A stretch of 64,000 bases of DNA, taken from positions 28,339-92,338 of the forward strand of contig CAIKXY010000002.1 of NCBI GenBank assembly GCA_903831595.1, read 5' to 3'. The notes below the pieces were generated by a model. That model was not told the DNA's origin and searched no databases. It saw only the letters and a program-made list of their open reading frames with translations. This DNA comes from an uncultured bacterium. Lineage in GTDB: Bacteria; Patescibacteriota; Minisyncoccia; Phycocordibacterales; GWA1-40-21. A program made the translations under genes and the position numbers. Position 1 is the stretch's first letter. Every line of letters starts with the position of its first letter. Shown piece by piece: positions 1 to 64,000 of this stretch.

Positions 1-615
1 ATTTTTAACTGGTATATCATATTCCCTGACATAATTAAGTAACATTTGGTCCATTTTTTTATATAAATCAAAATAATATTTCTTTGTTTTACTTAAAACT
101 GGTATTGCATTACCATGACTACCAACGAGATATTTGATTTTTGTACCTAGCATTTTTTCGTACCTTAATAAGTCCAACTGGGCTCCATATCCATAAATAT
201 TTAGTCTTTTTAATACTCCAATTAAATAGGTTGCAACCTCATCTGTTGGATTAGTGATAACAATTATAGGCACTGTTTTAGGAAATTTTTTTATTAGTGG
301 AAGCAGTGTATTTATTTCATATATAGAGCCATGTAATTCCTTGAGTCTAATTTCATAATTATTGTTTAAAGAAAAAATATACTCCATTCTTTTTTCGGGA
401 GTTATACCAGCCAAACTAATTACAATTAAATCAATTTGACTATATTCCTTTTCATTTTTAAAATAATCGAAAAAATATTTGTATTCTTTTTGATTGTTTT
501 GATTCTTGTTAATATAAAAGGAGTTAGCCCAATCTTTTATCTCATTAGCTATACCTTTCCCAACTCTTCCCATCCCCAGAAACAAAATTTTAGGTTTTTC
601 TACATTATTTATCAT
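1..615 (-). CDS. L-lactate/malate dehydrogenase family protein. The N-terminal 205 aa are present; the C-terminus lies beyond the left edge of the window.
   Basis: The minus-strand frame opens at ATG 615 as MINNVEKPKILFLGMGRVGKGIANE, a Rossmann GxGxxG motif. It continues with ITNPTDEVATYL and GAQLDLLRYEKML, matching the LDH/MDH NPVD and LDxxR motifs. The frame stays open to position 1. The ORF track omits it because it is truncated. Confidence 0.6.
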   Translation of the reverse strand, partial: MINNVEKPKILFLGMGRVGKGIANEIKDWANSFYINKNQNNQKEYKYFFDYFKNEKEYSQIDLIVISLAGITPEKRMEYIFSLNNNYEIRLKELHGSIYEINTLLPLIKKFPKTVPIIVITNPTDEVATYLIGVLKRLNIYGYGAQLDLLRYEKMLGTKIKYLVGSHGNAIPVLSKTKKYYFDLYKKMDQMLLNYVREYDIPVKN

Positions 616-26867: not shown

Positions 26868-26965
26868 GGAGAGGTGTCAGAGTGGGATAAAAGTGAACTG
26901 CTTTACTTTTATCCACAAACGAAGTTTGGGCGGCAACCAATCTGACACTATTCCGAAGGACGACA
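26868..26965 (+). other. Structured element that begins with an exact 18-nt copy of the tRNA-Ser 5' end (a tRNA-fragment-derived element)
   Basis: GGAGAGGTGTCAGAGTGG is identical to 26992-27009. It is followed by nested stems: GTGGGATAAAAG pairs with CTTTTATCCAC, and GTGTCAGA pairs with TCTGACAC. It does not fold as a tRNA. Confidence 0.3.
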
Positions 26966-26991
26966 AATTTGAGTGACAACGAAATATATTT

Positions 26992-27078
26992 GGAGAGGTG
27001 TCAGAGTGGTTGAATGAACCGGTCTTGAAAACCGGAAGGCCGGAAACGGTCTCGCGAGTTCGAATCTCGCCCTCTCCG
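26992..27078 (+). tRNA. tRNA-Ser (anticodon TGA)
   Basis: Acceptor GGAGAGG/CCTCTCC, 3-bp D-stem, anticodon loop CTTGAAA, long variable arm, T-arm GCGAG-TTCGAAT-CTCGC, discriminator G. Confidence 0.7.
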
Positions 27079-27084
27079 CATAAC

Positions 27085-44822: not shown

Positions 44823-44832
44823 CAAATGACAG

Positions 44833-44862
44833 AAAAACCCGGACTGCTCCGGGTTTTTCTTT
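44833..44862 (+). terminator. Terminator after tRNA-Arg
   Basis: AAACCCGGA, loop CTGCT, CCGGGTTT, then TTCTTT. Confidence 0.5.
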
Positions 44863-45060
44863 ACATGAGTGAGACGGAGCTATGTTTTGTGAGCACGCAA
44901 AACTGGCGAGTCATGGTCGAAACTTTTTCTGAGCGACGGCGAAGAAAAAAGTTGTGACCAATATAAAACCGCTAAAAAGATAAGCGAAGTGGTCCTGCCT
45001 CGTGTATTCGTGTTTTGAGTTTGGGATGGGCCCCAAAGAAATAAGCAAGTCCAGTTTTTT
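44863..45060. repeat. GC-rich noncoding repeat (copy X), related to 53965-54130
   Basis: Shared blocks: GTGAGACGGA, CTGAGCG-NN-G-GCGAAG, and AAAAGTTGTG(A/G)CC followed by (A/G)ATAAAA. Confidence 0.35.
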
Positions 45061-52337: not shown

Positions 52338-52375
52338 CAAAAATATCCGCCGCGGATTTTTTTGTGGGCGCTAAC
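52338..52375 (+). terminator. Terminator after tRNA-Val. It includes an inverted copy of the tRNA 3' acceptor strand.
   Basis: ATCCGCCGCGGAT hairpin plus a T-run. The outer stem GCGCCCAC...GTGGGCGC reuses the tRNA 3' end. Confidence 0.45.
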
Positions 52376-52527
52376 ACGCAAACTTCTTTGCGTGTGTAAG
52401 GGATTTGAAAGACTTTTCCGTACGAGCAAAGCGAGGTGGAAAAGTACCCGCGACGGTAGTCGAGAATCCCAGAATTATTGTAAATAGCAGTTATCACAAA
52501 TCTATGCTAAATTATTAAAATATCTCT

Positions 52528-54177: not shown

Positions 54178-54735
54178 ATGAATAATACATATATTTTTTT
54201 ACGTCACGGTGAGACAATAAAAGATCCAGCAGTTCATCCAAAAGAATGGAAACTTACTCCAAAAGCTCTAACGGTGATTAATGAGTATCTTAATTTAGAT
54301 ATATTTAAACAAGTTAATTTTATTTATTCATCAACAGAAAATAAATCAATTGCAACTTTAAAACCGATTGCTAATTTTTTGTCTAAGAAAATAATTGAAG
54401 TTGAAAATTTTGTAGAAATAGGCAGAAGCCCAAAATTTTTAAGTGACGAAGAATTTTTGGTTCAAAAGAAAAGACAACTAACTGAGTTTCAGGTGGAGGT
54501 AGATGGCGGCGAATCTGCGGAGCATGCCCTCAACCGTTTTAAAGAAGGAATAGGACAAATTGAAAAATATTATAATAACAAAGTCGTTTTGATTGGAAGT
54601 CATGGAACTGTTTTAAGCCTATATTTTGCTAATATTTTAAATAAAATGGACCAGGCTTATGAGCGCTGGGGGAAATTACCATTTTGCGCATACGGTGTAA
54701 TACGAGATGGTAGGGTTGAAAAAGACATCATTTGA
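54178..54735 (+). CDS. Histidine phosphatase family protein (phosphoglycerate-mutase-like)
   Basis: IFLRHGET, the RHG catalytic motif, and the C-terminal VLIGSHGTVLSLYF. Confidence 0.6.
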   Translation: MNNTYIFLRHGETIKDPAVHPKEWKLTPKALTVINEYLNLDIFKQVNFIYSSTENKSIATLKPIANFLSKKIIEVENFVEIGRSPKFLSDEEFLVQKKRQLTEFQVEVDGGESAEHALNRFKEGIGQIEKYYNNKVVLIGSHGTVLSLYFANILNKMDQAYERWGKLPFCAYGVIRDGRVEKDII

Positions 54736-55106: not shown

Positions 55107-55646
55107 ATGTCTCAAACAAAAAGGGGTGATGATGGGAAGACAAATCTCTATGGTTGCGACCAAAGAATTTCAAAAAGCTCGGCTATTACCGAGGCACTTG
55201 GGTGTTTGGATGAGATAAATTCTTATCTTGGTGTTGTAAAGGCAAATCTAAAAAAAGAAATATTAGGGAAAGAGGAAATTTCTGGCATTATTCATGGTAT
55301 TCAAAATGATTTGTTTATTGTTCAAGCACAAGTGGCCGGTGCGGACAAAAAAATAAGTGAAAATAATGTTAAATATATTGAGGATATTATTTCAGAAATT
55401 GAGAAAAAATTACCCCCGATAAAATCTTTTCTTGTTTCTGGTGCAAATAATATTTCTGCATATTTTGATTTTGCGCGAACACTTGCAAGAAGAGCAGAAA
55501 GAAGAGTCGTTGCTGTGAGCGAGGAGGGAATAGCAAAAATCGACCCCAAAACCCTTGTTTTTTTAAACCGTCTATCGAGTCTTTTGTATGTGTTCGCAAG
55601 ATACTTTGCCTTAAAAAATGGAGATGAGGTAGCTCCAAAGTATTAA
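55107..55646 (+). CDS. ATP:cob(I)alamin adenosyltransferase, PduO-type (MMAB family)
   Basis: TKRGDDGKTNLYGCDQRISKSSAITEALGCLDEINSYLGV and IQNDLFIVQAQVA match the PduO-type N-terminal signature. Confidence 0.65.
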   Translation: MSQTKRGDDGKTNLYGCDQRISKSSAITEALGCLDEINSYLGVVKANLKKEILGKEEISGIIHGIQNDLFIVQAQVAGADKKISENNVKYIEDIISEIEKKLPPIKSFLVSGANNISAYFDFARTLARRAERRVVAVSEEGIAKIDPKTLVFLNRLSSLLYVFARYFALKNGDEVAPKY

Positions 55647-55680
55647 ACCTAGATTTAATCGTAAAAATCTGTTATAAATA

Positions 55681-55806
55681 GTTTGTTTGATGGTGGCTAC
55701 GGTGAGAGGTAGCAGTTATGCTTGTTATTAGACAGTTTGTTTGATGTTCATTTGTATTTGATGGTGACTACGGTAGGAGGTAGCAGTTATGCTTGTTATG
55801 AGACAG
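55681..55806 (+). repeat. Two tandem degenerate copies of the 5' part of tRNA-His with its upstream leader
   Basis: Copy 1, about 55681-55736: GTTTGTTTGATGGTGGCTACGGTGAGAGGTAGCAGTTATGCTTGTTATTAGACAG. Copy 2, about 55751-55806: TTTGATGGTGACTACGGTAGGAGGTAGCAGTTATGCTTGTTATGAGACAG. The genuine leader plus 5' half is TTTGATGGTGGCTATGGTGTAGCGGTAGCA. Confidence 0.45.
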
Positions 55807-55835
55807 CTGTTTTGAGGTTCGTTATGTTGTTTGAT

Positions 55836-55907
55836 GGTGGCTATGGTGTAGCGGTAGCACAGAAGCCTGTGGAGCTTTTAGTTCGGGTTCAACTCCCGAT
55901 AGCCACC
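55836..55907 (+). tRNA. tRNA-His (anticodon GTG) with an encoded G-1
   Basis: The extra 5' G pairs with discriminator C. Acceptor GTGGCTA/TAGCCAC. Anticodon stem GAAGC/GCTTT with loop CTGTGGA. T-arm TCGGG-TTCAACT-CCCGA. The D-stem is short (3 bp). Confidence 0.6.
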
Positions 55908-56144
55908 CAATTGACAGCAGTCAGAAAGTGTGACCTGATTGCGTCGTGTTCGCGAATTTTCGTTCTAGACTCGTACGGTTCAAATCGTGAAAGGGACCCA
56001 AGAGTCAGCGATTGGTTTTCAGACCGGTACGCGTCAGTTTTATAGAATTTTGGTTCTAGACCAATACAGTTAAAAAACTATGAAAATAAAAAACTGGCGT
56101 AGGTTAGTGACGTCAGTTTTTCAATGTTATAACTTTGTTATATT

Positions 56145-56507
56145 TTATCTACCTAAACATTCAGGGAGATAAAGTAAGTTATCTCTTTTTGTTTCATCTG
56201 CAATCGTTTTGACATACCTTGTTCCCTCGTGTATCGCTACCATAAGTCGTGCTCGAGTTAGTCCTGATGAAACGTATGCTTCTCCTCCTTTGATTACGAA
56301 GTCATACATTTGCAATCTAGTACTCCAACCGACTTGTCCTGTGATATCATTTGTCCAACCAAGACCTCTAATTGCCTTATGTGGATTCTGATGATACCCA
56401 GCGTCTTTATTGATACATGTAATTTTAATAGCCATTTTTGTATTGTGTGTGTTTGTATCCCGATACTTGTTAATATTCAGCCTTTTAGTTATTATACTAA
56501 GGGTCAT
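56145..56507 (-). CDS. DUF3892-family protein
   Basis: MAIKITCINKDAGYHQNPHKAIRGLGW...YDFVIKGGEAYV...GTRYVKTIADETKRDNLLYLPEC matches the DUF3892 pattern that is common in mobile-element contexts. Confidence 0.5.
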   Translation of the reverse strand: MTLSIITKRLNINKYRDTNTHNTKMAIKITCINKDAGYHQNPHKAIRGLGWTNDITGQVGWSTRLQMYDFVIKGGEAYVSSGLTRARLMVAIHEGTRYVKTIADETKRDNLLYLPECLGR

Positions 56508-56665
56508 TCAATCGAGTTCTAACCAAATCCCAATCATAGACTCTCATCAGCGTAGTATCAGATTCTTGTCGATGAGACCTAACAAAAATAGGAAGTCGTT
56601 TCTTTCGCGAGCAACATCTTCCGCATTTTCGTGCTTACCACGGTTTTCACCATGTTATATCTATA

Positions 56666-56713
56666 TTATCAAATTGATAAACGCTTGTCAAATCATTTTG
56701 ATAAGTGTATAAT
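56666..56713 (+). promoter_or_regulatory. Operator palindrome TTATCAA-A-TTGATAA followed by the promoter TTGTCA, 17-nt spacer, TATAAT. It drives a leaderless XRE transcript.
   Basis: The 7-nt arms form a perfect inverted repeat at 56666-56680. The -10 box ends 6 nt before ATG 56720. Confidence 0.45.
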
Positions 56714-56719
56714 GCCAGT

Positions 56720-57061
56720 ATGAAAAATGAAGAAAATAAAGGGTCATCTATAGGTTCTCGAATTAGAAGTGCTCGTGAGGAAATGGGTTATTCACAACTT
56801 GATCTAGCTAAGAAGCTGGATTTTGAGTCTGCAACAGCAATCTCACTCATTGAGAGCGGGGAACGTAATATTACTATCAATAATCTAGAAAAAATTGCTG
56901 GCATCCTCCATCGAAGTGTTAATTATTTTCTAGGGAAGCCAGAAAAAGATAATGTTACAGTTGAATATGCTCTTCGTGCTGATAAACATCTTTCTCCAGA
57001 TGCAAAAAAGGCTATTCTCCAATTCATAGAATTAGCAAAAAATAACAAGAATGGAAAATGA
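56720..57061 (+). CDS. XRE-family helix-turn-helix transcriptional regulator
   Basis: IGSRIRSAREEMGYSQLDLAKKLDFESATAISLIESGERNITINNLEKIAGIL is an HTH_3 domain. Confidence 0.7.
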   Translation: MKNEENKGSSIGSRIRSAREEMGYSQLDLAKKLDFESATAISLIESGERNITINNLEKIAGILHRSVNYFLGKPEKDNVTVEYALRADKHLSPDAKKAILQFIELAKNNKNGK

Positions 57062-57551
57062 TCCTATTAATCTTGGCCCACGAAAAACGGCAGCAAAAAA
57101 TCTTGCTAAGAAGCTTATTAAAGACACAAAAATAAGCGAAGCTCCAGTTTCTCTTCAAACGATTATTGAACATTTACAGTCTACGTACACTATTTCTGTA
57201 CAGAGAGTTAATTTTCCAACAGAGGTATCCGGTTTGCTTGTTAAGTGTAAAGAAGTTGATGGGGAATATTACACGATTGGTTTTAACGAAAACCACCCAT
57301 GGTGTCGTCGTCGATTTACCATAGCTCATGAAATCGGGCATCTACTTTTCGGTCATGTTTGCAAAAAGGGGCAAAAAGATGAGACGGATGACGAAAAAGA
57401 AGCGGATGCTTTTGCCGGAGAATTATTAATTCCTACAATATTAATAAAAAAAGATTTTGGAAAAATTAAGAAAGTTCCAGAACTTTCAAAATTATATCGT
57501 GTTAGTGCAGAGGCTCTCACTATAAAATTAATGGATGCACGTTTATTGTAA
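57051..57551 (+). CDS. ImmA/IrrE-family zinc metallopeptidase (COG2856)
   Basis: HEIGHLLFGH zinc-binding motif. Overlaps the XRE stop by 11 nt, the canonical XRE-ImmA pairing. Confidence 0.7.
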   Translation: MENDPINLGPRKTAAKNLAKKLIKDTKISEAPVSLQTIIEHLQSTYTISVQRVNFPTEVSGLLVKCKEVDGEYYTIGFNENHPWCRRRFTIAHEIGHLLFGHVCKKGQKDETDDEKEADAFAGELLIPTILIKKDFGKIKKVPELSKLYRVSAEALTIKLMDARLL

Positions 57552-57553
57552 TT

Positions 57554-58894
57554 CTAGTTTTGTAGAATAATTTTTCTGTCATCTAACACGATTTTATTCT
57601 TTAATTGTTCGAGTAACTCCCGTTTCTCATAAATCGTTCCTTCTCTAAGTATATATTTAGCATATGCTCGTATATCAACTTCTTTTTCTTTTATTTTTTT
57701 ATCATCTTTTATTCCAAATACGTTTGAACGTAGTTTGTTATGTTTTTCGATCTCTCTATCAATGATATGTCTTGCACCAATCTGATTGATATCAAGTTTG
57801 TCGATAATTTCTTCAAGCTGAGTTATTAAATTATCTTCTCTGATATATGGATTTTTGCAAAACATATCATTATGCCTTGTACAACTGTAGTAAATGTATG
57901 AATGCACACTCCCATCGCTAATATTTTTATGTTTTTCCTGTGCTGTTATTCCTGATCCACATTTTCCGCAAGTCATTAGTTTAGTAAATGTAAACTCATG
58001 ATAAAGTTTTTTACTCTTACTTCGTTCTTCTGCCATATTTTCTTGTACACGCTGGAAAAGTTCTTTGGTTATAATCGGCTGATGTTTCCCCTCGTACCAG
58101 TTACCGCTTCCACGCGGATATTCGAATGTTCCAGTGTAGAAAGAGTTTTTTAATAGGTTGTATATTGTACTTAAGTTTAGATTTTTATTATTTTTCGTTT
58201 TGAATTTCATATCATCTCTCAGCCAATGATATAATTTTCGTCCACTCCATCTTTCATATGCAACTTTTTCAAATACTTGTTTTATGATTGGAGCTCTAAT
58301 CGGATCTACTATTACATAGCACTCTCTACCGATAATTTTCTCATTCGTATATCCTACCGAAGCCACTGATGGCCACAATCCCATCTCTGCCCGTGCTTTG
58401 AGTCCACGTTTTACATTTACGCTCTTGTTGTCATTCTCAAGCTTCGCCTGTGAGCCAAGAATCATCAACAAGAACTTTTCATTAGGGGAGTCAGTGAACT
58501 TTTGACTGTAGGTTCTTATCTCAACTAATTTCTTTTGATCAATAAGATCGACTATCATTCCAAGATCCCCACCATTTCTTGAAAGTCTGTCTGGTGCCCA
58601 CGTCAATATTCCATTAAACATTCCTTTTCGGATGTCCTCAAGAAGTTGTACGAAAACCGGTCTTGAACCACTAGCTTTCGCCGAATGACTCTCTTTACGA
58701 ATTTCAGTTATGTTTAAACCATCTCGTTGGGCAAGCTCTAGCATCTCCTTGATTTGAGAATCAATTGATAACGCTTGCAATTCATCCGCCTCACTGCTCT
58801 TACGTGCGTATAGGCAGTATTTGATTGTCACATCCGCCTTTTGTTCTCCACGAGCCACTTGTGCCCCTGAAAACCCTTGTTTCGCCTGTTGCAT
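57554..58894 (-). CDS. Large serine recombinase (resolvase/invertase N-terminal domain, recombinase domain and zinc-ribbon)
   Basis: N-terminal YARKSSEADELQALSIDSQ with the catalytic Ser, DRLSRN, a recombinase domain, and the Cys cluster CGKCGSGITAQ...YYSCTRHNDMFCKN. Confidence 0.8.
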   Translation of the reverse strand: MQQAKQGFSGAQVARGEQKADVTIKYCLYARKSSEADELQALSIDSQIKEMLELAQRDGLNITEIRKESHSAKASGSRPVFVQLLEDIRKGMFNGILTWAPDRLSRNGGDLGMIVDLIDQKKLVEIRTYSQKFTDSPNEKFLLMILGSQAKLENDNKSVNVKRGLKARAEMGLWPSVASVGYTNEKIIGRECYVIVDPIRAPIIKQVFEKVAYERWSGRKLYHWLRDDMKFKTKNNKNLNLSTIYNLLKNSFYTGTFEYPRGSGNWYEGKHQPIITKELFQRVQENMAEERSKSKKLYHEFTFTKLMTCGKCGSGITAQEKHKNISDGSVHSYIYYSCTRHNDMFCKNPYIREDNLITQLEEIIDKLDINQIGARHIIDREIEKHNKLRSNVFGIKDDKKIKEKEVDIRAYAKYILREGTIYEKRELLEQLKNKIVLDDRKIILQN

Positions 58895-59021
58895 ATTTAT
58901 TATTCTTTAATATCTTTTAAATTCGACTACATACATCAATGACGCAACCCTTTCGTGGAGTCCAGAGAGGGTAAGTTGGTAAGAAGTAGATAACTAGCGA
59001 GCTCTTTATTTTTCTTCAATT

Positions 59022-60227
59022 TTGTTGTACTTTTATGTAATAATATCAATTATGGATTTTCAACAATATTTTCAATCGAAAAATCTCACAAAAACCCCAA
59101 TGGAGGGTGTTCATTATGAGCAAAAAATTACACCAGATTTATTGTGGTGTGTTGCTTATGTCGTCTCAGATCTTATCAAGGATGATCCCGAAAAGATATT
59201 TACTGATAGTGATGTGAGAGAATCTCCAATTTTTAATTCATTAACACAGGATTATTTTTCGAAGGCACCCCAAGAAAATGCCGAAAATGAATATAATAAA
59301 TTCAGCTCATATCAACTCGGTGTTTTGTCTTTTGCTGGTATCTTTGAACAAATTTCAGGCCGCCCTAAAAAATATAGAGTAAACAATTTAGAAGCTTTAA
59401 AATATATTGCAATAAATGATTTTAATGCCGCAAGATTTTTAGGGGAATATACAGAAAAATTTATTCTTGATAATGGTCTTAATGGTATTTTTGAAATTTA
59501 TCATCAAAATCCAAATCAGGATAATTATCTGCGTGTAAAAGAAGCTTATTGGAATTGGGCAAAAATAAATACAGCAATAAAAGGTACTGATAGAAAACAC
59601 ACTTATCGTGTCTTCAATAAAATGTTTAATGTTTTTTGTTACAAGAATCATTTACCAGGGGAGGATGGTTCAAATATAATAAATGGTCCATGTCCATATT
59701 CCTTTTTACTATATAATCGAACAAATTTTAGAGATGTAGATATGCCCTCTGGTATGACAAGACAGCAATATCAGGAAGAAGTACTTTCAGAAGTCGAGCA
59801 AGGGGGTTTGGTTGAAACTCTATTACAAAAAGTTAAGGAGGCTGTAAAAATAAAAAGTGGTAATAGTAGTGAAATTAAAGATATTGACTGGGGATATGCT
59901 CCCAATGATGGTGGTATTCATGTTCATCACATACTTCCTCGTCATTCATATCCTCAATTCTCAATTGCAAAAGAAAATTTAATAGCTTTAACTCCCGGTC
60001 AGCACCTTTCGTATGCTCACGTAGAAGCAAATACTAGAACAATAAATCATGAGTTCCAAATTATTTGTTTAAAGAGAAAATTTGAAGCTGTAAGGGCATC
60101 TTTAGAAGCAGGAGATGGCTTCTATGACTTAAAACAATTTATAAGAATGTTCAATACTTGTTTTAACTGGACTATCAGTGAAAATTCTTCTGTCGATCAA
60201 GTTGGTTCAGCACTTGCAACTGTTTAG
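59022..60227 (+). CDS. HNH-motif nuclease, a putative Type II restriction endonuclease partner of the adjacent methyltransferase
   Basis: C-terminal GGIHVHHILPRHSYPQF...ENLIALTPGQHLSYAH is an HNH. It is convergent with and adjacent to the methyltransferase gene. Confidence 0.5.
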   Translation: MLYFYVIISIMDFQQYFQSKNLTKTPMEGVHYEQKITPDLLWCVAYVVSDLIKDDPEKIFTDSDVRESPIFNSLTQDYFSKAPQENAENEYNKFSSYQLGVLSFAGIFEQISGRPKKYRVNNLEALKYIAINDFNAARFLGEYTEKFILDNGLNGIFEIYHQNPNQDNYLRVKEAYWNWAKINTAIKGTDRKHTYRVFNKMFNVFCYKNHLPGEDGSNIINGPCPYSFLLYNRTNFRDVDMPSGMTRQQYQEEVLSEVEQGGLVETLLQKVKEAVKIKSGNSSEIKDIDWGYAPNDGGIHVHHILPRHSYPQFSIAKENLIALTPGQHLSYAHVEANTRTINHEFQIICLKRKFEAVRASLEAGDGFYDLKQFIRMFNTCFNWTISENSSVDQVGSALATV

Positions 60228-60229
60228 TC

Positions 60230-62749
60230 TTATCTTTTAACTCCAAAAAAGAATACAGAATTGTTATCAATATTGAGAGATCGAGTACCATGATTTCTTG
60301 CTACTCTATAAAACTCAGTAAATTCTTCCGTACCAAAGTAATCTAAATCATTTTTTGTTATTTTTGCTTCATTTTCTTTTAGGGTAAGGATAGCCACTGA
60401 TCCATCAACAAGTGTATTCTCTGGCAGAAATGAGGCTCGTGGGGCGTATGTTAGATTTGGCACTAAAACACTATTTTCTTTATTCCAAAATTTCGAAATA
60501 GATAAACCGTCCAGTGAATCAACGTAAGAATCATAATTGGGAATATTTAATATTTCGTTCCGTCCAATATTTCTTGATTTTAATATTCTTATCCTACCTT
60601 CATTTTTTGTTATTTTCTTGGTAATTTGACGATCCCTGTATGAAATAAAAATATTAAATCGAAGTTTTTTTGCTATAGAATCAAAAAAGGCATTTCTATA
60701 TACTAACCAATAAGGAAAATCTTTTGAACATATATAAGATTGATCTTTATACTCAATTATATTTTTAACATAAGACTCCACCAGTGTTCGTGTGCCTTTG
60801 TTTTGAGTATTAATAATTAAACTTATCGTCTCAATTTTTACACCCTTGAATCCCTTTTCTCCGTAATCTGTAATTTTTTCAATAGCAAAAGATGAAACAA
60901 GTTCTCTTGTCTTGTTAAATTCTGGCGCTGAAAGAAAACTTTTAGGAATAATAAGACCAACAGTATTTCCCAATTGGATTGTTTTTTCAAGGAAAAAAGA
61001 AAAAAGATTATTTGTTTCTGTATTATATTTATTTTTTTTATATAGATTTAATAATTCTTTATTTTCAGATATGTCTCCGAATGGAGGGTTACCGATAATA
61101 ATGTCATATCGTTTTGATTGATTGAATAAGTTTGTTTCTCCATATAGTAAAAAGTCAGCATTAATCAAGTTGATGATAATATTTTTAGGAATGTTTAGTT
61201 TTTTCAGTAAGAGTTTTAATATTTCAATCGCATTTTTATCAATATCAATCACATCGATATGAACTTCTTTAACTGTTTTATATTTTTCGATAAGAAGAGG
61301 AAGAAAATTTCCAGCCCCAACGGATGGTTCTAATATCGAAAGCTTTTCGAATTTAGATGTGTCGGGTAAATCTTTCACAATGGTAAAACAAATATCTTGT
61401 CTTGTGTAATATGCCGCGTGTTGAAGACGTTGGGCGTTTGCAAGCTCAACAATTTTTACTAGTTCAGGATAAGTCAAATCATTTATATTTTTTTTAATAA
61501 AATTTTTTAGATTTTCCTCAATATCAAGTCTCTTATCTACAATAAGTTTTTTTATTTGGGTTTCGTTTTTATTATTATTTTTTAGTTTTAAATTTATATT
61601 TTTAGCAATACCTTTAAATATAACTGTTGGTACAGCTTCACCAAGAGACTGTCTAATATTTATCTCTTCTTTTTTAAGAATTTTTCTTTTTTCTTCAACC
61701 GATAATTTATTTAATATATTGAGTGGTGTTGATACCCAATTAAAAGAATCTGGTACTGACATCATTCGCATCAATTCTCTTATACTGAAAACTCTATTAT
61801 CCTTTGGGTGAACTGTGGCTTGGCTTGCCAAAATATCATTTCTTGTGTGAACACATGGTGCAACCTTATCCCAATAACAACGTGAATATTTATCTGCATT
61901 CTTGTTTTCATTACAAACAATTTTTCCATTTATAATCTGATGTGGTCGTCTTTTTGGATCAATGTTATCGAAAGCTGACTGTCCCTCTTTGATGTTCTCA
62001 ATCCAAGGAAGCATATGTTCCCCATATGATCTAAAATTATGATAAATATCTTTCTTATCAATTTTTCCCATTATTTTAAGAGAAGTAAGATCGCCAATTG
62101 CATCACGTAATGTACCTCCATTTTTTAAATTAGGCATAAGGTCAAGAGGTGTAACTTCCTGTATGTCTTTTCTTACCCCAATAACTAGTGTTCGTGTTCT
62201 ACTTGATGGATTTCCATAATCTTTAAAATTTATTATTTGATAGTGGATATTATATTTTCCGCCAAGGTTCAATTCAATTGCTTCTCGAATTTTTTTCTGT
62301 TTTTTGTCGGTATCAGTGCAAAGACTAGAAAGAAATGCTCTAACATTCTCAAAAATAAATACTTTTGGTCTAATTTGATCTACAAGTTTAATTGATTCTA
62401 CGACAAGAGAATTTCTGGCAAGCTCGTCTCCTTTTTTGTGATTAGCAACAGACATACCCTGACAAGGTGGAGTTGCTAGTAAGACATCAATTTCTTTAAT
62501 TCCTTTTTTTGATTTCCATAAATCGATTTCTGAGAATATTTTTTCTTTTGCAGATTTTTTTGTAATATCATCCGCTATATAGCCACTTGGATATAAACAT
62601 TTATTATTATGTTTTTGGACATCTAAACGTCTATTAATCAATTCAATAGTTGCGACACAATCAAAATTTTCCTGAGAAAATCCGTAACATCCAACACCTG
62701 CACTACTGAATAAACTAATGTATGTTAATTTTTTCTCGTTGCTTTTCAT
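60230..62749 (-). CDS. Fused DNA methyltransferase. The N-terminal half is a C5-cytosine MTase and the C-terminal half an N6-adenine MTase.
   Basis: C5 motifs: I LFSSAGVG, IV PPCQGMSVAN, VI FIFENVRAF. N6A motifs: ILEPSVGAGNF (motif I) and IIGNPPFG (motif IV). 839 aa. Confidence 0.75.
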   Translation of the reverse strand: MKSNEKKLTYISLFSSAGVGCYGFSQENFDCVATIELINRRLDVQKHNNKCLYPSGYIADDITKKSAKEKIFSEIDLWKSKKGIKEIDVLLATPPCQGMSVANHKKGDELARNSLVVESIKLVDQIRPKVFIFENVRAFLSSLCTDTDKKQKKIREAIELNLGGKYNIHYQIINFKDYGNPSSRTRTLVIGVRKDIQEVTPLDLMPNLKNGGTLRDAIGDLTSLKIMGKIDKKDIYHNFRSYGEHMLPWIENIKEGQSAFDNIDPKRRPHQIINGKIVCNENKNADKYSRCYWDKVAPCVHTRNDILASQATVHPKDNRVFSIRELMRMMSVPDSFNWVSTPLNILNKLSVEEKRKILKKEEINIRQSLGEAVPTVIFKGIAKNINLKLKNNNKNETQIKKLIVDKRLDIEENLKNFIKKNINDLTYPELVKIVELANAQRLQHAAYYTRQDICFTIVKDLPDTSKFEKLSILEPSVGAGNFLPLLIEKYKTVKEVHIDVIDIDKNAIEILKLLLKKLNIPKNIIINLINADFLLYGETNLFNQSKRYDIIIGNPPFGDISENKELLNLYKKNKYNTETNNLFSFFLEKTIQLGNTVGLIIPKSFLSAPEFNKTRELVSSFAIEKITDYGEKGFKGVKIETISLIINTQNKGTRTLVESYVKNIIEYKDQSYICSKDFPYWLVYRNAFFDSIAKKLRFNIFISYRDRQITKKITKNEGRIRILKSRNIGRNEILNIPNYDSYVDSLDGLSISKFWNKENSVLVPNLTYAPRASFLPENTLVDGSVAILTLKENEAKITKNDLDYFGTEEFTEFYRVARNHGTRSLNIDNNSVFFFGVKR

Positions 62750-63124
62750 TTGTTACATTATAACTTTTATATTTTTTCTTGGGAAGGCCTAAAACAATAA
62801 TGACTGAATATAGTTAATTGGTCTAGTGGCATTGTTGGTAACTTTGCTTCGCAAACTCTCTAATCTAAGCTAGGGTATGGAGTAATACCTAATTTTTTGG
62901 TATTATGTTATTTACAATTAAATAAAAGACGACCTAACCCCTTTAGAAATAGAGGATATGGTTGCAAAACCCGCTAGAGAACAAAGGACTCCTCGTCAGA
63001 GTCACTCTAGCGGGTCATATTGGGAAACTGATATGGGTGAGGCTGAAAGGTTTCATCGCGATGGCGGGGAGCTCTTTGTTTATATAAAGACTCACCTCTA
63101 TCGATTAAAACCCGCTAGAGTTTT

Positions 63125-63769
63125 ATGAATGATCAAAACCAGTCTTTCGAGATTAAGACTAAAAAACAAGTCTCAAATATCAATCTATTATTAAGCTGGG
63201 CATTTGGAATATTTTTTATTTTGTGCGGAATAGGACTTATATTTACAAGCATTGTATCGGGAATTATTTTTATTGTTGGTGGCTTAATATTACTACCTAC
63301 AATAGCTGAAAAAATAGAAAAAACTTATAAAGTTTCTTTTTCTAGAAATATGAAAGTATCTATTGTATTTTTAGTGATTATATTATCTGCAGTGTTATCA
63401 TCAATAACTGATAAAAAAGATGACTCGCCTTCTCTATCTAAGGTCCAAGAAGTAAAAACAGAAACAATTAATAATCAAAATTCTATATCTAAAGAAAGTG
63501 CTCAAAAAGATTTAGATGAAATAATTTCATTAGGTAAAAAAGCAGGACTGATAGTTTCTTACGAGTTTTCAGATAAAGCTACTGTAGTATATATTGGAAG
63601 TACATGGTATACACAAACTGTAGCATTCAAAAAAGATTTTATGGCTAAAATCGCATCACTAAAAAAAGTCATAACTGGATATAATCATTTTGAAGCCAGA
63701 GACGCTTATTCAAATGAAAAAGTAGCTGAAGTGACAGCTTTCTCAAATTCTATAGAGGTATATAAATAA
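63125..63769 (+). CDS. Hypothetical membrane protein (214 aa)
   Basis: Two TM helices (WAFGIFFILCGIGLIFTSIVSGIIFIVGGLILL) and a third (VSIVFLVIILSAVLSSI), then a soluble C-terminal domain. Confidence 0.45.
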   Translation: MNDQNQSFEIKTKKQVSNINLLLSWAFGIFFILCGIGLIFTSIVSGIIFIVGGLILLPTIAEKIEKTYKVSFSRNMKVSIVFLVIILSAVLSSITDKKDDSPSLSKVQEVKTETINNQNSISKESAQKDLDEIISLGKKAGLIVSYEFSDKATVVYIGSTWYTQTVAFKKDFMAKIASLKKVITGYNHFEARDAYSNEKVAEVTAFSNSIEVYK

Positions 63770-63772
63770 TAT

Positions 63773-64000
63773 ATGGGAAAACGATTAAACATAATAAAAC
63801 TTTCTTCCTTAGTACTGATATTATTTTTTATTGTTTGGATATTTTCTAACATAGATACAAAAGTTGAAATTCAAAACGAGGAAATAACCGCGTCCTCTAA
63901 TGTAACGATATCTACTACAACAGATAAAAATGTTCAGCAAGATTTAGTGTCTGTCATTTCTGTTGTAGACGGAGATACAATAAAAGTTTTAATTGAAGGA
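63773..64000 (+). CDS. Thermonuclease (SNase-like) family protein, N-terminal part; continues beyond the window
   Basis: Signal/TM segment, then VISVVDGDTIKVLIEG, the SNase N-terminal signature. Confidence 0.45.
   Translation, partial: MGKRLNIIKLSSLVLILFFIVWIFSNIDTKVEIQNEEITASSNVTISTTTDKNVQQDLVSVISVVDGDTIKVLIEG

Follow-up and report, generated by a model that had tools for sequence, protein, structure and literature searches.

The tRNA fragment displaced by an integrating element is normally the 3′ part of the gene, which overlaps the attachment site, and it includes no promoter or leader DNA of the host. Displaced fragments mark islands in tRNA genes (Islander, PMC4383910), and accretion has been described for additive tRNA-proximal islands and tycheposons (bioRxiv 10.1101/2020.12.28.424599). 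For misannotated prokaryotic tRNA pseudogenes and fragments, the two sources in the dataset of PMC9897764 were element integration and CRISPR spacers. Minisatellite-like arrays in intergenic DNA, which form by slipped-strand events or unequal crossing-over, are characterized by head-to-tail copies of constant period, a repeated junction and colinear flanks, and are confined to one lineage.

Here, we analysed a window of 64,000 nt (the whole stretch of DNA under study) from a small-genome bacterium of the Patescibacteria type, in which an intact tRNA-His gene is preceded by two degenerate partial copies and followed by a serine-recombinase island (Table 1). As at the integration hotspots of PMC4383910 and bioRxiv 10.1101/2020.12.28.424599, truncated copies lie beside an intact gene, and the locus is a demonstrable hotspot for site-specific recombinase islands. 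However, the units found here consist of the 5′ part of the gene together with host promoter and leader sequence, lie 47–50 nt apart and have no element between them. The likeness to the pseudogenes of PMC9897764 is that these are non-functional partial tRNAs close to a canonical gene; they differ in that they apparently stem from nothing more than a local duplication, and in being so degenerate that tRNA finders do not call them. A minisatellite-like array has the same organization, but the segment repeated here takes in a promoter together with the initial third of a tRNA gene, and tRNA pseudo-fragments and a leader of about 150 nt have been created as a result. Literature searches returned nothing on tandem 5′-half tRNA copies. 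Overall, the array looks like an ordinary, lineage-private local duplication, and not like the footprint of a mobile element or a working decoy RNA. As tRNA pseudo-fragments the units have an unusual composition, with promoter, leader and the 5′ third of the gene closely repeated, but the kind of event is an ordinary one.

Table 1. Features of the tRNA-His locus and the adjoining island, with positions in the 64,000 nt window
Feature	Position	Strand	Basis or remark
Putative tRNA-His promoter: TAGATT (-35-like, 55650-55655), 17-nt spacer, extended -10 TGTTATAAA (55670-55678)	55650..55678	+	Consensus and conservation
Leader copy A, GTTTGTTTGAT; ancestral-type short leader	55681..55691	+	Alignment to the leaders of L014 and L010 (one copy each)
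Pseudo 5′ half A, GGTGGCTACGGTGAGAGGTAGCA; tRNA-His nt -1..24	55692..55714	+	21/24 positions as in true 5′ half
Tail 1: decayed copy of -10 (TGTTATTAGACA) and leader (GTTTGTTTGATG), with 17-nt insertion	55715..55762	+	Local alignment to 55669-55692
Pseudo 5′ half B, GGTGACTACGGTAGGAGGTAGCA	55763..55785	+	20/23 as in half A; 18/24 as in true 5′ half
Tail 2: another decayed copy of -10 (TGTTATGAGACA) and leader, which has become the proximal leader of the intact gene	55786..55835	+	Copy alignment
Functional tRNA-His(GUG), encoded G-1 at 55836	55836..55908	+	ARAGORN; Rfam tRNA model, 63 bits; folding z -2.76
Module 1, TTGACAGCAGTCA... ending CGTTCTAGAC; follows tRNA-His in syntenic recombinase-bearing genomes	55909..55970	+	Common to L025 and L030
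Decayed tRNA-His T-loop and 3′ acceptor end, ACGGTTCAAATCGTGAAAGGGACCC	55975..55999	+	Local alignment modest, p ~0.03; 17/25 matches
Module 2, AAGAGTCAGCGATTGG...GGTTCTAGACC; second tRNA-proximal island terminus	56000..56062	+	Aligns directly 3′ of tRNA-His in L022 and L027
DUF3892 gene, island cargo	56145..56507	-	Pfam PF13031
XRE-type HTH regulator, 56705-57061	within 56705..57551	+	Pfam PF01381
ImmA/IrrE M78 peptidase, 57051-57551	within 56705..57551	+	Pfam PF06114
Large serine recombinase, 3′ end facing tRNA 3′ end	57554..58894	-	Pfam Resolvase, Recombinase, Zn_ribbon_recom
401-aa protein (+), family unassigned by Pfam, and 839-aa fused C5/N6 DNA methyltransferase (-)	59022..62749	.	Methyltransferase PF00145, PF07669, PF02384

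The initial annotation had described a staircase of two units of approximately 55 nt, each followed by the same tail and ending in the functional gene. The strings it quoted are real, and each occurs exactly and only once in the window: TTTGATGGTGGCTACGGTGAGAGGTAGCA at 55686–55714, TTTGATGGTGACTACGGTAGGAGGTAGCA at 55757–55785 and, in the genuine gene, TTTGATGGTGGCTATGGTGTAGCGGTAGCA at 55830–55859. The tail GTTATGCTTGTTAT(T/G)AGACAG follows both units (55715–55735 and 55786–55806) and is found nowhere else across the 64 kb, where 0 occurrences are expected by chance. Almost none are expected of the shared tail GTTATGCTTGTTATKAGACAG, which occurs twice in the 64 kb, both times in the array, or of the motif TTTGATGGTGGCTAYGGT, which occurs three times in the array and 0 times elsewhere. 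The sequences are unique to this spot in the window, and are not part of the genome-wide dispersed repeat that had been named as speaking against a tRNA-His origin. The period is longer than was stated. TRF returned a tandem repeat at 55686–55859 with a period of 71 (2.4 copies, 82% matches, score 234), and a repeat search of the window found a 67 nt pair with 87% identity and a spacing of 71, as well as a three-member, head-to-tail family with spacings of 71 and 73 nt.

In its natural register the repeat begins about 20 nt farther upstream, at approximately 55661. The copies are then A (55661–55714), B (55715–55785) and C (55786–55859), with C running on into the gene, and in this register they align with one another and with the single-copy regions of two related loci, L014 and L010. 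Copies B and C are 80% identical, and across the array the copies differ by 13–39%. The longest exact repeat is 23 nt (GAGGTAGCAGTTATGCTTGTTAT) and spans the junction, and a further 13-nt exact repeat at 55680/55734 includes the leader 12-mer GTTTGTTTGATG. There is no ORF and no element DNA in the short spacers between the partial tRNA copies.

The repeated unit consists of the extended -10 of the tRNA-His promoter (TGTTATAAAT), the leader and tRNA nt -1..24. It is present three times, and in the third alone it runs on into a complete tRNA-His gene. The units had been taken for the leader plus 5′ half of tRNA-His, which is correct for those parts; the tail, too, turned out to be a decayed copy of promoter and leader. 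Tail 1 (55715–55756) and the DNA just upstream of unit 1 match in 22 of 24 aligned columns, of which one is a 1-nt gap (TGTTA-TAAATAGTTTGTTTGATG versus TGTTATTAGACAGTTTGTTTGATG). The alignment with the promoter-leader segment 55669–55692 scored 31 compared with 13.8±2.4 for shuffled sequence, and 0/2000 shuffles reached it. A first MAFFT alignment in which the units were treated as whole degenerate tRNAs, with the tail GTTC placed on the T loop, was rejected, as the tails match promoter and leader instead. Indeed, neither tail resembles the anticodon and T arms, i.e. the 3′ two-thirds of the tRNA (local alignment, p ~0.94). ARAGORN did not call the units as tRNAs and they have no Rfam match even at E≤10; only the true tRNA passes. 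It has a normal tRNA-His(GTG) body at 55837–55908 (ARAGORN, Rfam), and its encoded G-1 is of the bacterial type. The staircase does end in a functional gene. A sub-threshold match to the fluoride riboswitch at 55611–55706 (23.3 bits, gathering score 34) overlaps the end of a coding gene and the promoter, and was treated as chance.

Halves A and B have three derived changes in common relative to the true half and to the tRNAs of relatives, namely U8>C, a 1-nt deletion in the D-loop and C>A, and these are also the changes that separate half A from tRNA-His nt -1..24. Both tails have the same decayed -10 (TATKAG) and the insertion of approximately 17 nt. The internal -10 copies, TATTAG and TATGAG, have both lost the final T of the hexamer and have no -35-like TAGATT upstream. 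Both units end sharply at the same point of the tRNA, between nt 24 and 25.

The gene upstream of the array encodes a PduO-type cobalamin adenosyltransferase, and it was used to retrieve related loci from genomes and metagenomes. All 14 loci compared (L001, L002, L004, L010, L011, L012, L014, L020, L022, L023, L025, L027, L029 and L030; L013 and L024 are duplicates of L012 and L023 and were not counted) have a single copy of tRNA-His, whether or not a recombinase island is present, and seven of them have a homologous island. The array is therefore private to this lineage. In L001, L010, L011, L012, L013, L014 and L020 the flanking DNA is 80–91% identical, and these loci and the more distant L002 share a conserved promoter, a short leader and one tRNA-His. 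The local score for a 5′ copy was 29 in the window and at best 14 in the related tRNA-His loci. When the first 25 nt of each tRNA were compared with the 400 nt upstream, the values were 13 for tRNA-His and 18 for tRNA-Ser in the window, and 3–8 for all 46 other tRNAs compared. No intermediate with one extra copy was found among the relatives examined.

The promoter block is conserved ahead of tRNA-His in every syntenic relative; TAGATT..TCTGTTATAAATA is present in L001, L002, L010, L011, L014, L020 and L025, and has diverged in L029. The 41 nt that include the distal promoter in the window (55640–55680) have 0 changes relative to L010. The pseudo 5′ half beside it has three changes in 24 nt, though the contrast between 0/41 and 3/24 is only marginal (hypergeometric p ~0.05). 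Among close relatives the tRNA-His leader is hypervariable, with lengths of 8 nt in L010, 14 in L014, 31 in L012 and 42 in L020, yet tail 1 carries the leader 12-mer of its own lineage (GTTTGTTTGATG, 12/12 nt), and thus the source of the copy was local DNA. In L001, L011 and L020 the leader contains a small, 11-nt tandem duplication of the -10 region (TGTTATAAATA/YGTTATAACTA). Judging by these sequences, the leader is a spot that appears prone to small tandem changes.

We put at about 70% the probability that the array arose in two rounds of local tandem duplication and that the gene is still transcribed from the conserved distal promoter. The features of local tandem duplication are all present: head-to-tail copies with a constant period, colinearity with a single novel junction, and one copy in sister lineages. 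The segment first duplicated would have been approximately 55–70 bp, extending from just upstream of the extended -10, through the short leader, to tRNA nt 24 at the end of the D-arm. The first round would have produced the promoter, leader and an orphan 5′ half, followed by a second -10, a second leader and the complete tRNA gene. Subsequently, the orphan 5′ half would have acquired U8>C, the 1-nt deletion and C>A, while decay turned the internal -10 into TATKAG and about 17 nt were added to the internal leader. In a second round, the altered 5′ half with the internal -10 and leader would have been duplicated by slippage or unequal crossing-over, which would also have copied the novel junction, GGTAGCA/GTTATGCTTGTTAT, that is now found once per unit. 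Lacking a 3′ half, the upstream copies would be unable to form tRNAs, and they are best regarded as pseudogene fragments that may well be neutral.

The block at 55650–55678 probably acts as the promoter. As this distal promoter is intact and the internal copies lack both a -35-like element and the last T of the -10, we infer that transcription starts near 55685; on sequence grounds the internal copies look like poor promoters. The tRNA-His transcript probably initiates from the -10 at 55670–55678 and reads through both fragments. It would have a precursor leader of about 150 nt that includes the two fragments, and RNase P would remove it.

One observation sits uneasily with a simple slip. The tRNA-Ser gene in the window also has a copy of its 5′ end upstream, an exact 18-nt match located 124 nt away, which is paired with an inverted partial copy in a predicted hairpin (-39.2 kcal/mol, z -4.79). 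The spacer of tRNA-Ser has no significant similarity to its own upstream DNA or to the small elements found 3′ of tRNAs, so the tRNA-Ser case is not explained by the model for tRNA-His. The two cases together suggest, if faintly, that such copying recurs and was not a single slip.

The initial annotation had also placed the 3′ side of tRNA-His against a serine-recombinase element and had linked the repeated partial duplication to successive insertion or excision events. The first point is borne out. The island resembles ImmR/ImmA-type large serine recombinase elements in combining a Resolvase/Recombinase/Zn-ribbon protein with an XRE regulator, an M78 peptidase and defence-like cargo. It differs from them in that the target here is a tRNA gene, with a specificity that tracks divergence of the recombinase, first His and then Gly. 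Homologues of the recombinase are abundant in Patescibacteria. In 6/6 homologue groups with at least 71% identity the recombinase adjoins tRNA-His, including P0003, P0007, P0010, P0011 and P0015 (71–81% identity), and homologues P0023 and P0085 (60–66% identity) are found beside tRNA-Gly(TCC). The 3′ end of the recombinase gene faces the 3′ end of the tRNA in every locus examined. From these adjacencies, the recombinase family does target tRNA genes, namely tRNA-His, with a switch to tRNA-Gly in more distant members. Literature searches returned nothing on recombinases targeting tRNA-His in Patescibacteria. The 401-aa protein and the methyltransferase beyond the recombinase are probably restriction-modification cargo, and homologous islands carry restriction-modification systems in the same position.

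Two of the related loci, L025 and L030, share the gene order of the window (adenosyltransferase, L19, pseudouridine synthase) and have islands at the same tRNA-His. In L029, the same island and tRNA body are present at 99.96% identity behind an upstream region that is homologous but different, made up of TAGATTTTTAAACGTTTTTCTGGTATAAAT and a 22-nt leader, and there are no units. L029 is thus close to a natural control: the same island without the staircase. The left end of the island appears to lie at or within the tRNA, and relatives differ immediately 3′ of the tRNA. A right end was looked for in the window and not found. A displaced 3′ fragment of tRNA-His was not found at the far end of the island by a pattern search up to position 64000, and local alignment of tRNA nt 25–76 with 56100–64000 gave nothing above shuffle level.

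The 3′ side of the gene has a layered structure. The segment from the T loop to the motif GGTTCTAGAC is present twice, 91 nt apart (repeat D6). The first copy comprises the true 3′ end of the tRNA and a spacer of the type found in L025 and L030. The second comprises the decayed 3′ end, only 62 nt from the true gene, and a spacer like the one immediately after the intact tRNA in L022 and L027. The match of the decayed end is modest; aligned with L022 and L027, it keeps the register of their intact tRNA 3′ ends, and the module 2 sequence comes next. Scans of IMG/VR with the module 2 motif and with the 21-mer of the units returned no match. Taken together, 55909–56062 resembles the footprints of successive integrations in which a module of about 91 nt has been duplicated, and this side of the locus appears to fit the pattern of fragments at integration hotspots.

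It could be argued that the units on the 5′ side have the same origin, with each one left behind when the serine recombinase, through integration or illegitimate exchange, brought in a replacement promoter, leader and 5′ part with a crossover at nt 24/25. The recombinase family is tRNA-targeted, accretion appears to have occurred on the 3′ side, where two island termini are accompanied by a degenerate 3′ end of the tRNA, and a unit boundary that is sharp and repeated is also what a site-specific event is expected to leave. Moreover, the match to L029 starts at about nt 6 of the tRNA, which means that island-linked DNA extends into the 5′ part of the gene. As the DNA shared with L029 begins somewhere between nt 6 and the 3′ end, there is room for a recombinase-related illegitimate exchange at nt 24/25. 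However, the copies are only 47–50 nt apart, without element DNA between them, and the tails are homologous to the host promoter and the lineage-specific leader and unlike the upstream region of L029. In addition, 5′ copies were found in 0/7 of the other recombinase-bearing tRNA-His loci, nor were any found in L029 with its identical island. The islands elsewhere are indeed beside tRNA-His, as the initial annotation had supposed, but they are not accompanied by similar fragments. Successive integrations also predict that the distal, chromosomal promoter should be the one decaying, and it is the distal promoter that is intact and the proximal copies that are degenerate. Finally, known element-derived tRNA fragments bracket the element (PMC4383910; bioRxiv 10.1101/2020.12.28.424599), whereas the recombinase here is on the opposite, 3′ side of the gene from the units. 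The units contain nt -1..24 with the host -10 and leader, and not the part overlapping the attachment site, and no comparable fragments accompany the same recombinase family elsewhere. We consider an origin of the 5′ copies in recombinase activity unlikely, and of the link originally drawn, the duplication stands and the connection to insertion or excision is not supported.

Local duplication also accounts for the units better than a function in RNA, the other proposal made in the initial annotation, which saw a possible array of tRNA-like decoy transcripts. The units might act in cis as a leader or decoy, with the pseudo 5′ acceptor strands competing for the 3′ acceptor strand of the tRNA and so tuning its maturation, or the hairpin of unit 1 and the U-rich tract might attenuate transcription. 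The predicted minimum-energy fold of the precursor (55681–55911) does pair GGUGGCUACGG in unit 1 with the true 3′ acceptor and T-stem strand, at -63.4 kcal/mol compared with -54.5 when the cloverleaf is enforced, and U8>C strengthens both this alternative pairing and a local hairpin. A terminator scan flagged GCTACGGTGAGAGGTAGC followed by AGTTATGCTT, and the upstream 5′ copy at tRNA-Ser lies within the very stable structure described above. However, the method misses the cloverleaf even for the isolated tRNA, and so the strand-competition result is weak. Shuffled sequence folds as well as the units do (z -0.36 and +1.80 for the units, compared with -2.76 for the true tRNA), the whole precursor has a z of -0.58, and unit 2 has already lost its acceptor complementarity through G4>A. 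As the units are also absent from every relative examined, nothing about them is conserved. A regulatory role thus has no positive support, and a function of the units as a leader or decoy RNA is very unlikely.

It is extremely unlikely that the assembly of a mixed population created the array, or its link to the island, as an artefact. In GCA_903938855.1 the unit-bearing contig (L021, the only one with an exact adenosyltransferase match) breaks off after 9 nt of the tRNA, and on the contig with the island (L029) a different upstream sequence leads into the tRNA. The tRNA and the island are thus common to two or more variants, and the join across the tRNA in the window could be chimeric. However, the array is present in L021 at 100% identity over 1698 nt and its copies, which differ by 13–39%, have at most 23 exact bases in common, which makes a k-mer loop created by the assembler improbable, and the recombinase islands at this tRNA-His in the syntenic L025 and L030 make the linkage of array and island plausible. 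The risk of a chimera concerns that linkage only, and not the array.

Copies of tRNA ends are not confined to the tRNA-His and tRNA-Ser genes. In the window, tRNA-Val and tRNA-Arg are each followed by a strongly structured element, as are tRNA-His, tRNA-Leu and tRNA-Arg in relatives. Every such element is made up of a terminator, two copies of the 3′ end of its own tRNA, one inverted and one direct, and a three-way junction between the two, and none has an Rfam match. In relatives that are free of the recombinase, a 40-nt motif with GGTTCTAC and TATAAT precedes successive genes downstream of tRNA-His and has the character of a cassette-junction motif. A LOOT RNA is located at 62931–63054 in the window.

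The tRNA-His units may belong to a wider and so far undescribed phenomenon in Patescibacteria, in which copies of tRNA termini are built into the flanks of the same genes, but we regard this as distinctly unlikely. If such tRNA-end mimics act in precursor processing, or are sites of recombination or cassette junctions, the units at tRNA-His could represent their degenerate counterpart on the 5′ side, and might then be retained because they modulate maturation of tRNA-His. The hairpins that mimic tRNA ends merit more follow-up than the array does.

On its own, the array matters little: it is a private duplication that left two pseudo-fragments and a longer leader for tRNA-His. It does provide a worked example of why partial copies next to a tRNA that carries an island should not simply be taken for scars of integration. 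What decides such cases is the content of the spacers, here host promoter and leader, together with control loci that carry the same island. The locus also documents a lineage of large serine recombinases in Patescibacteria that targets tRNA genes, and that brings probable restriction-modification or defence cargo into a hypervariable hotspot.

When the related locus L029 (GCA_903938855.1, CAJAET010000163.1) was compared with window positions 55834-58187, the tRNA-His body and the island that follows it were found to be 99.96% identical. The promoter and leader that precede tRNA-His in L029 are homologous to those in the window but different. As a near-identical tRNA body and island lie behind a different promoter and leader, the island-linked DNA appears to begin inside tRNA-His. 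In the same comparison, a C>T change at nucleotide 5 of the tRNA produces a U5·G68 wobble, which suggests that this tRNA-His is a hybrid gene. GCA_903938855.1 contains two coexisting variants.

On the 3' side of tRNA-His is a tandem module of approximately 91 nt, made up of the T loop and 3' acceptor end, approximately 45 nt of spacer and then AATTTTNGTTCTAGAC. The second copy opens with a decayed tRNA 3' end. Spacer 1 matches the island terminus of L025 and L030, and spacer 2 that of L022 and L027, all four being tRNA-His loci with homologous recombinase islands; the two spacers thus correspond to the termini of islands from different lineages. In relatives that lack the recombinase, an approximately 40 nt motif, CTTTGCGTTTTCGGTTCTACCCGAGTATAATTTKGGTATG, is repeated downstream of tRNA-His ahead of successive, mutually different genes, and a T-loop-like variant of it, GGTTCTAGACC, forms the end of the tRNA-proximal module in the recombinase islands. 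In its placement it resembles an att-core motif or the junction of a gene cassette.

A family of strongly structured, non-coding elements was found downstream of tRNA genes in the window and its relatives (see table). Each is composed of a terminator hairpin, the 3' end of the neighbouring tRNA copied in inverted orientation, a three-way junction (..TTGAAAGAC.., ..GAGTCGGG.. and a GTGACC hairpin), and that tRNA 3' end once more in direct orientation. The arms of the elements differ according to the adjacent tRNA. No match to these elements was found in Rfam.

Coordinates of features in the window and in related loci
Feature	Locus	Positions	Context
tRNA-Ser	window	26992-27079
Structured spacer	window	26868-26991	upstream of tRNA-Ser
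Structured element	window	44824-44965	after tRNA-Arg-TCT
Structured element	window	52339-52475	after tRNA-Val
Structured element	L010	3655-3937
Structured elements	L013	3668-3852 and 4776-4960
Structured element	L014	2720-2913
Structured element	L020	321-532
Structured elements	L001, L010, L012, L025		after tRNA-Leu and tRNA-Arg
Phosphatase segment	window	53913-54729	gene at 54178-54735
Fluoride-riboswitch match	window	55611-55706
Tandem module	window	55909-56062	3' of tRNA-His
Decayed tRNA 3' end	window	55975-55999	second module copy
~40 nt motif or variant	window	55961, 56052
~40 nt motif or variant	L001	4796, 7607
~40 nt motif or variant	L013	5008
~40 nt motif or variant	L014	2960
~40 nt motif or variant	L020	579, 1665
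401 aa protein	window	59022-60227
839 aa methylase fusion	window	60230-62749
LOOT RNA (RF03000)	window	62931-63054 (+)
tRNA-Gly-TCC	L031	11455-11526	adjoins recombinase homologue
tRNA-Gly-TCC	L032	12130-12201	adjoins recombinase homologue
tRNA-His	L022, L023, L025, L027, L030		adjoins recombinase homologue

In the spacer upstream of tRNA-Ser, 124 nt ahead of the gene, is an 18 nt exact duplicate of its 5' end, GGAGAGGTGTCAGAGTGG, which pairs with a partial inverted copy, TCTGACACTATTCC, and encloses an inner hairpin. The spacer folds at -39.2 kcal/mol (z -4.79; 0/200 shuffles equally stable). It has no match in Rfam and no significant similarity to its own upstream DNA.

Among close relatives, the tRNA-His leader ranges from 8 to 42 nt. 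Directly 5' of tRNA-His in L001, L011 and L020, the -10 region is duplicated in tandem (11 nt; TGTTATAAATA and YGTTATAACTA). The leader is thus a hotspot for small-scale duplications and indels. A fluoride-riboswitch match in the window, which covers the last part of the adenosyltransferase gene and also falls on the promoter and on unit 1 (the first of the decayed partial copies ahead of tRNA-His), is below threshold (23.3 bits; gathering score 34) and is probably due to chance. Further upstream, a histidine-phosphatase-family gene and its upstream DNA vary among relatives. This segment is found in L018 and L021 and is missing from L010, L011, L012 and L014, where tRNA-Leu is followed by approximately 200 nt and then an 88 aa gene.

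Within the window island, a 401 aa protein with no Pfam match is encoded next to an 839 aa fusion of a C5 cytosine methylase and an Eco57I/N6-type methylase domain, and the two are probably an unusual restriction-modification pair. Directly past the methyltransferase gene is a LOOT RNA (73.5 bits; gathering score 46.4), close to the candidate right edge of the island.

Cargo around the recombinase homologues includes restriction-modification, Shedu-like (SduA_C), PIN or T5orf172 genes. In every case (L022, L023, L025, L027, L030, L031 and L032), the tRNA and recombinase genes are convergent. Homologues that share at least 71% identity are located at tRNA-His and those that share 60-66% identity at tRNA-Gly(TCC). 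The choice of target tRNA follows the divergence of the recombinase.
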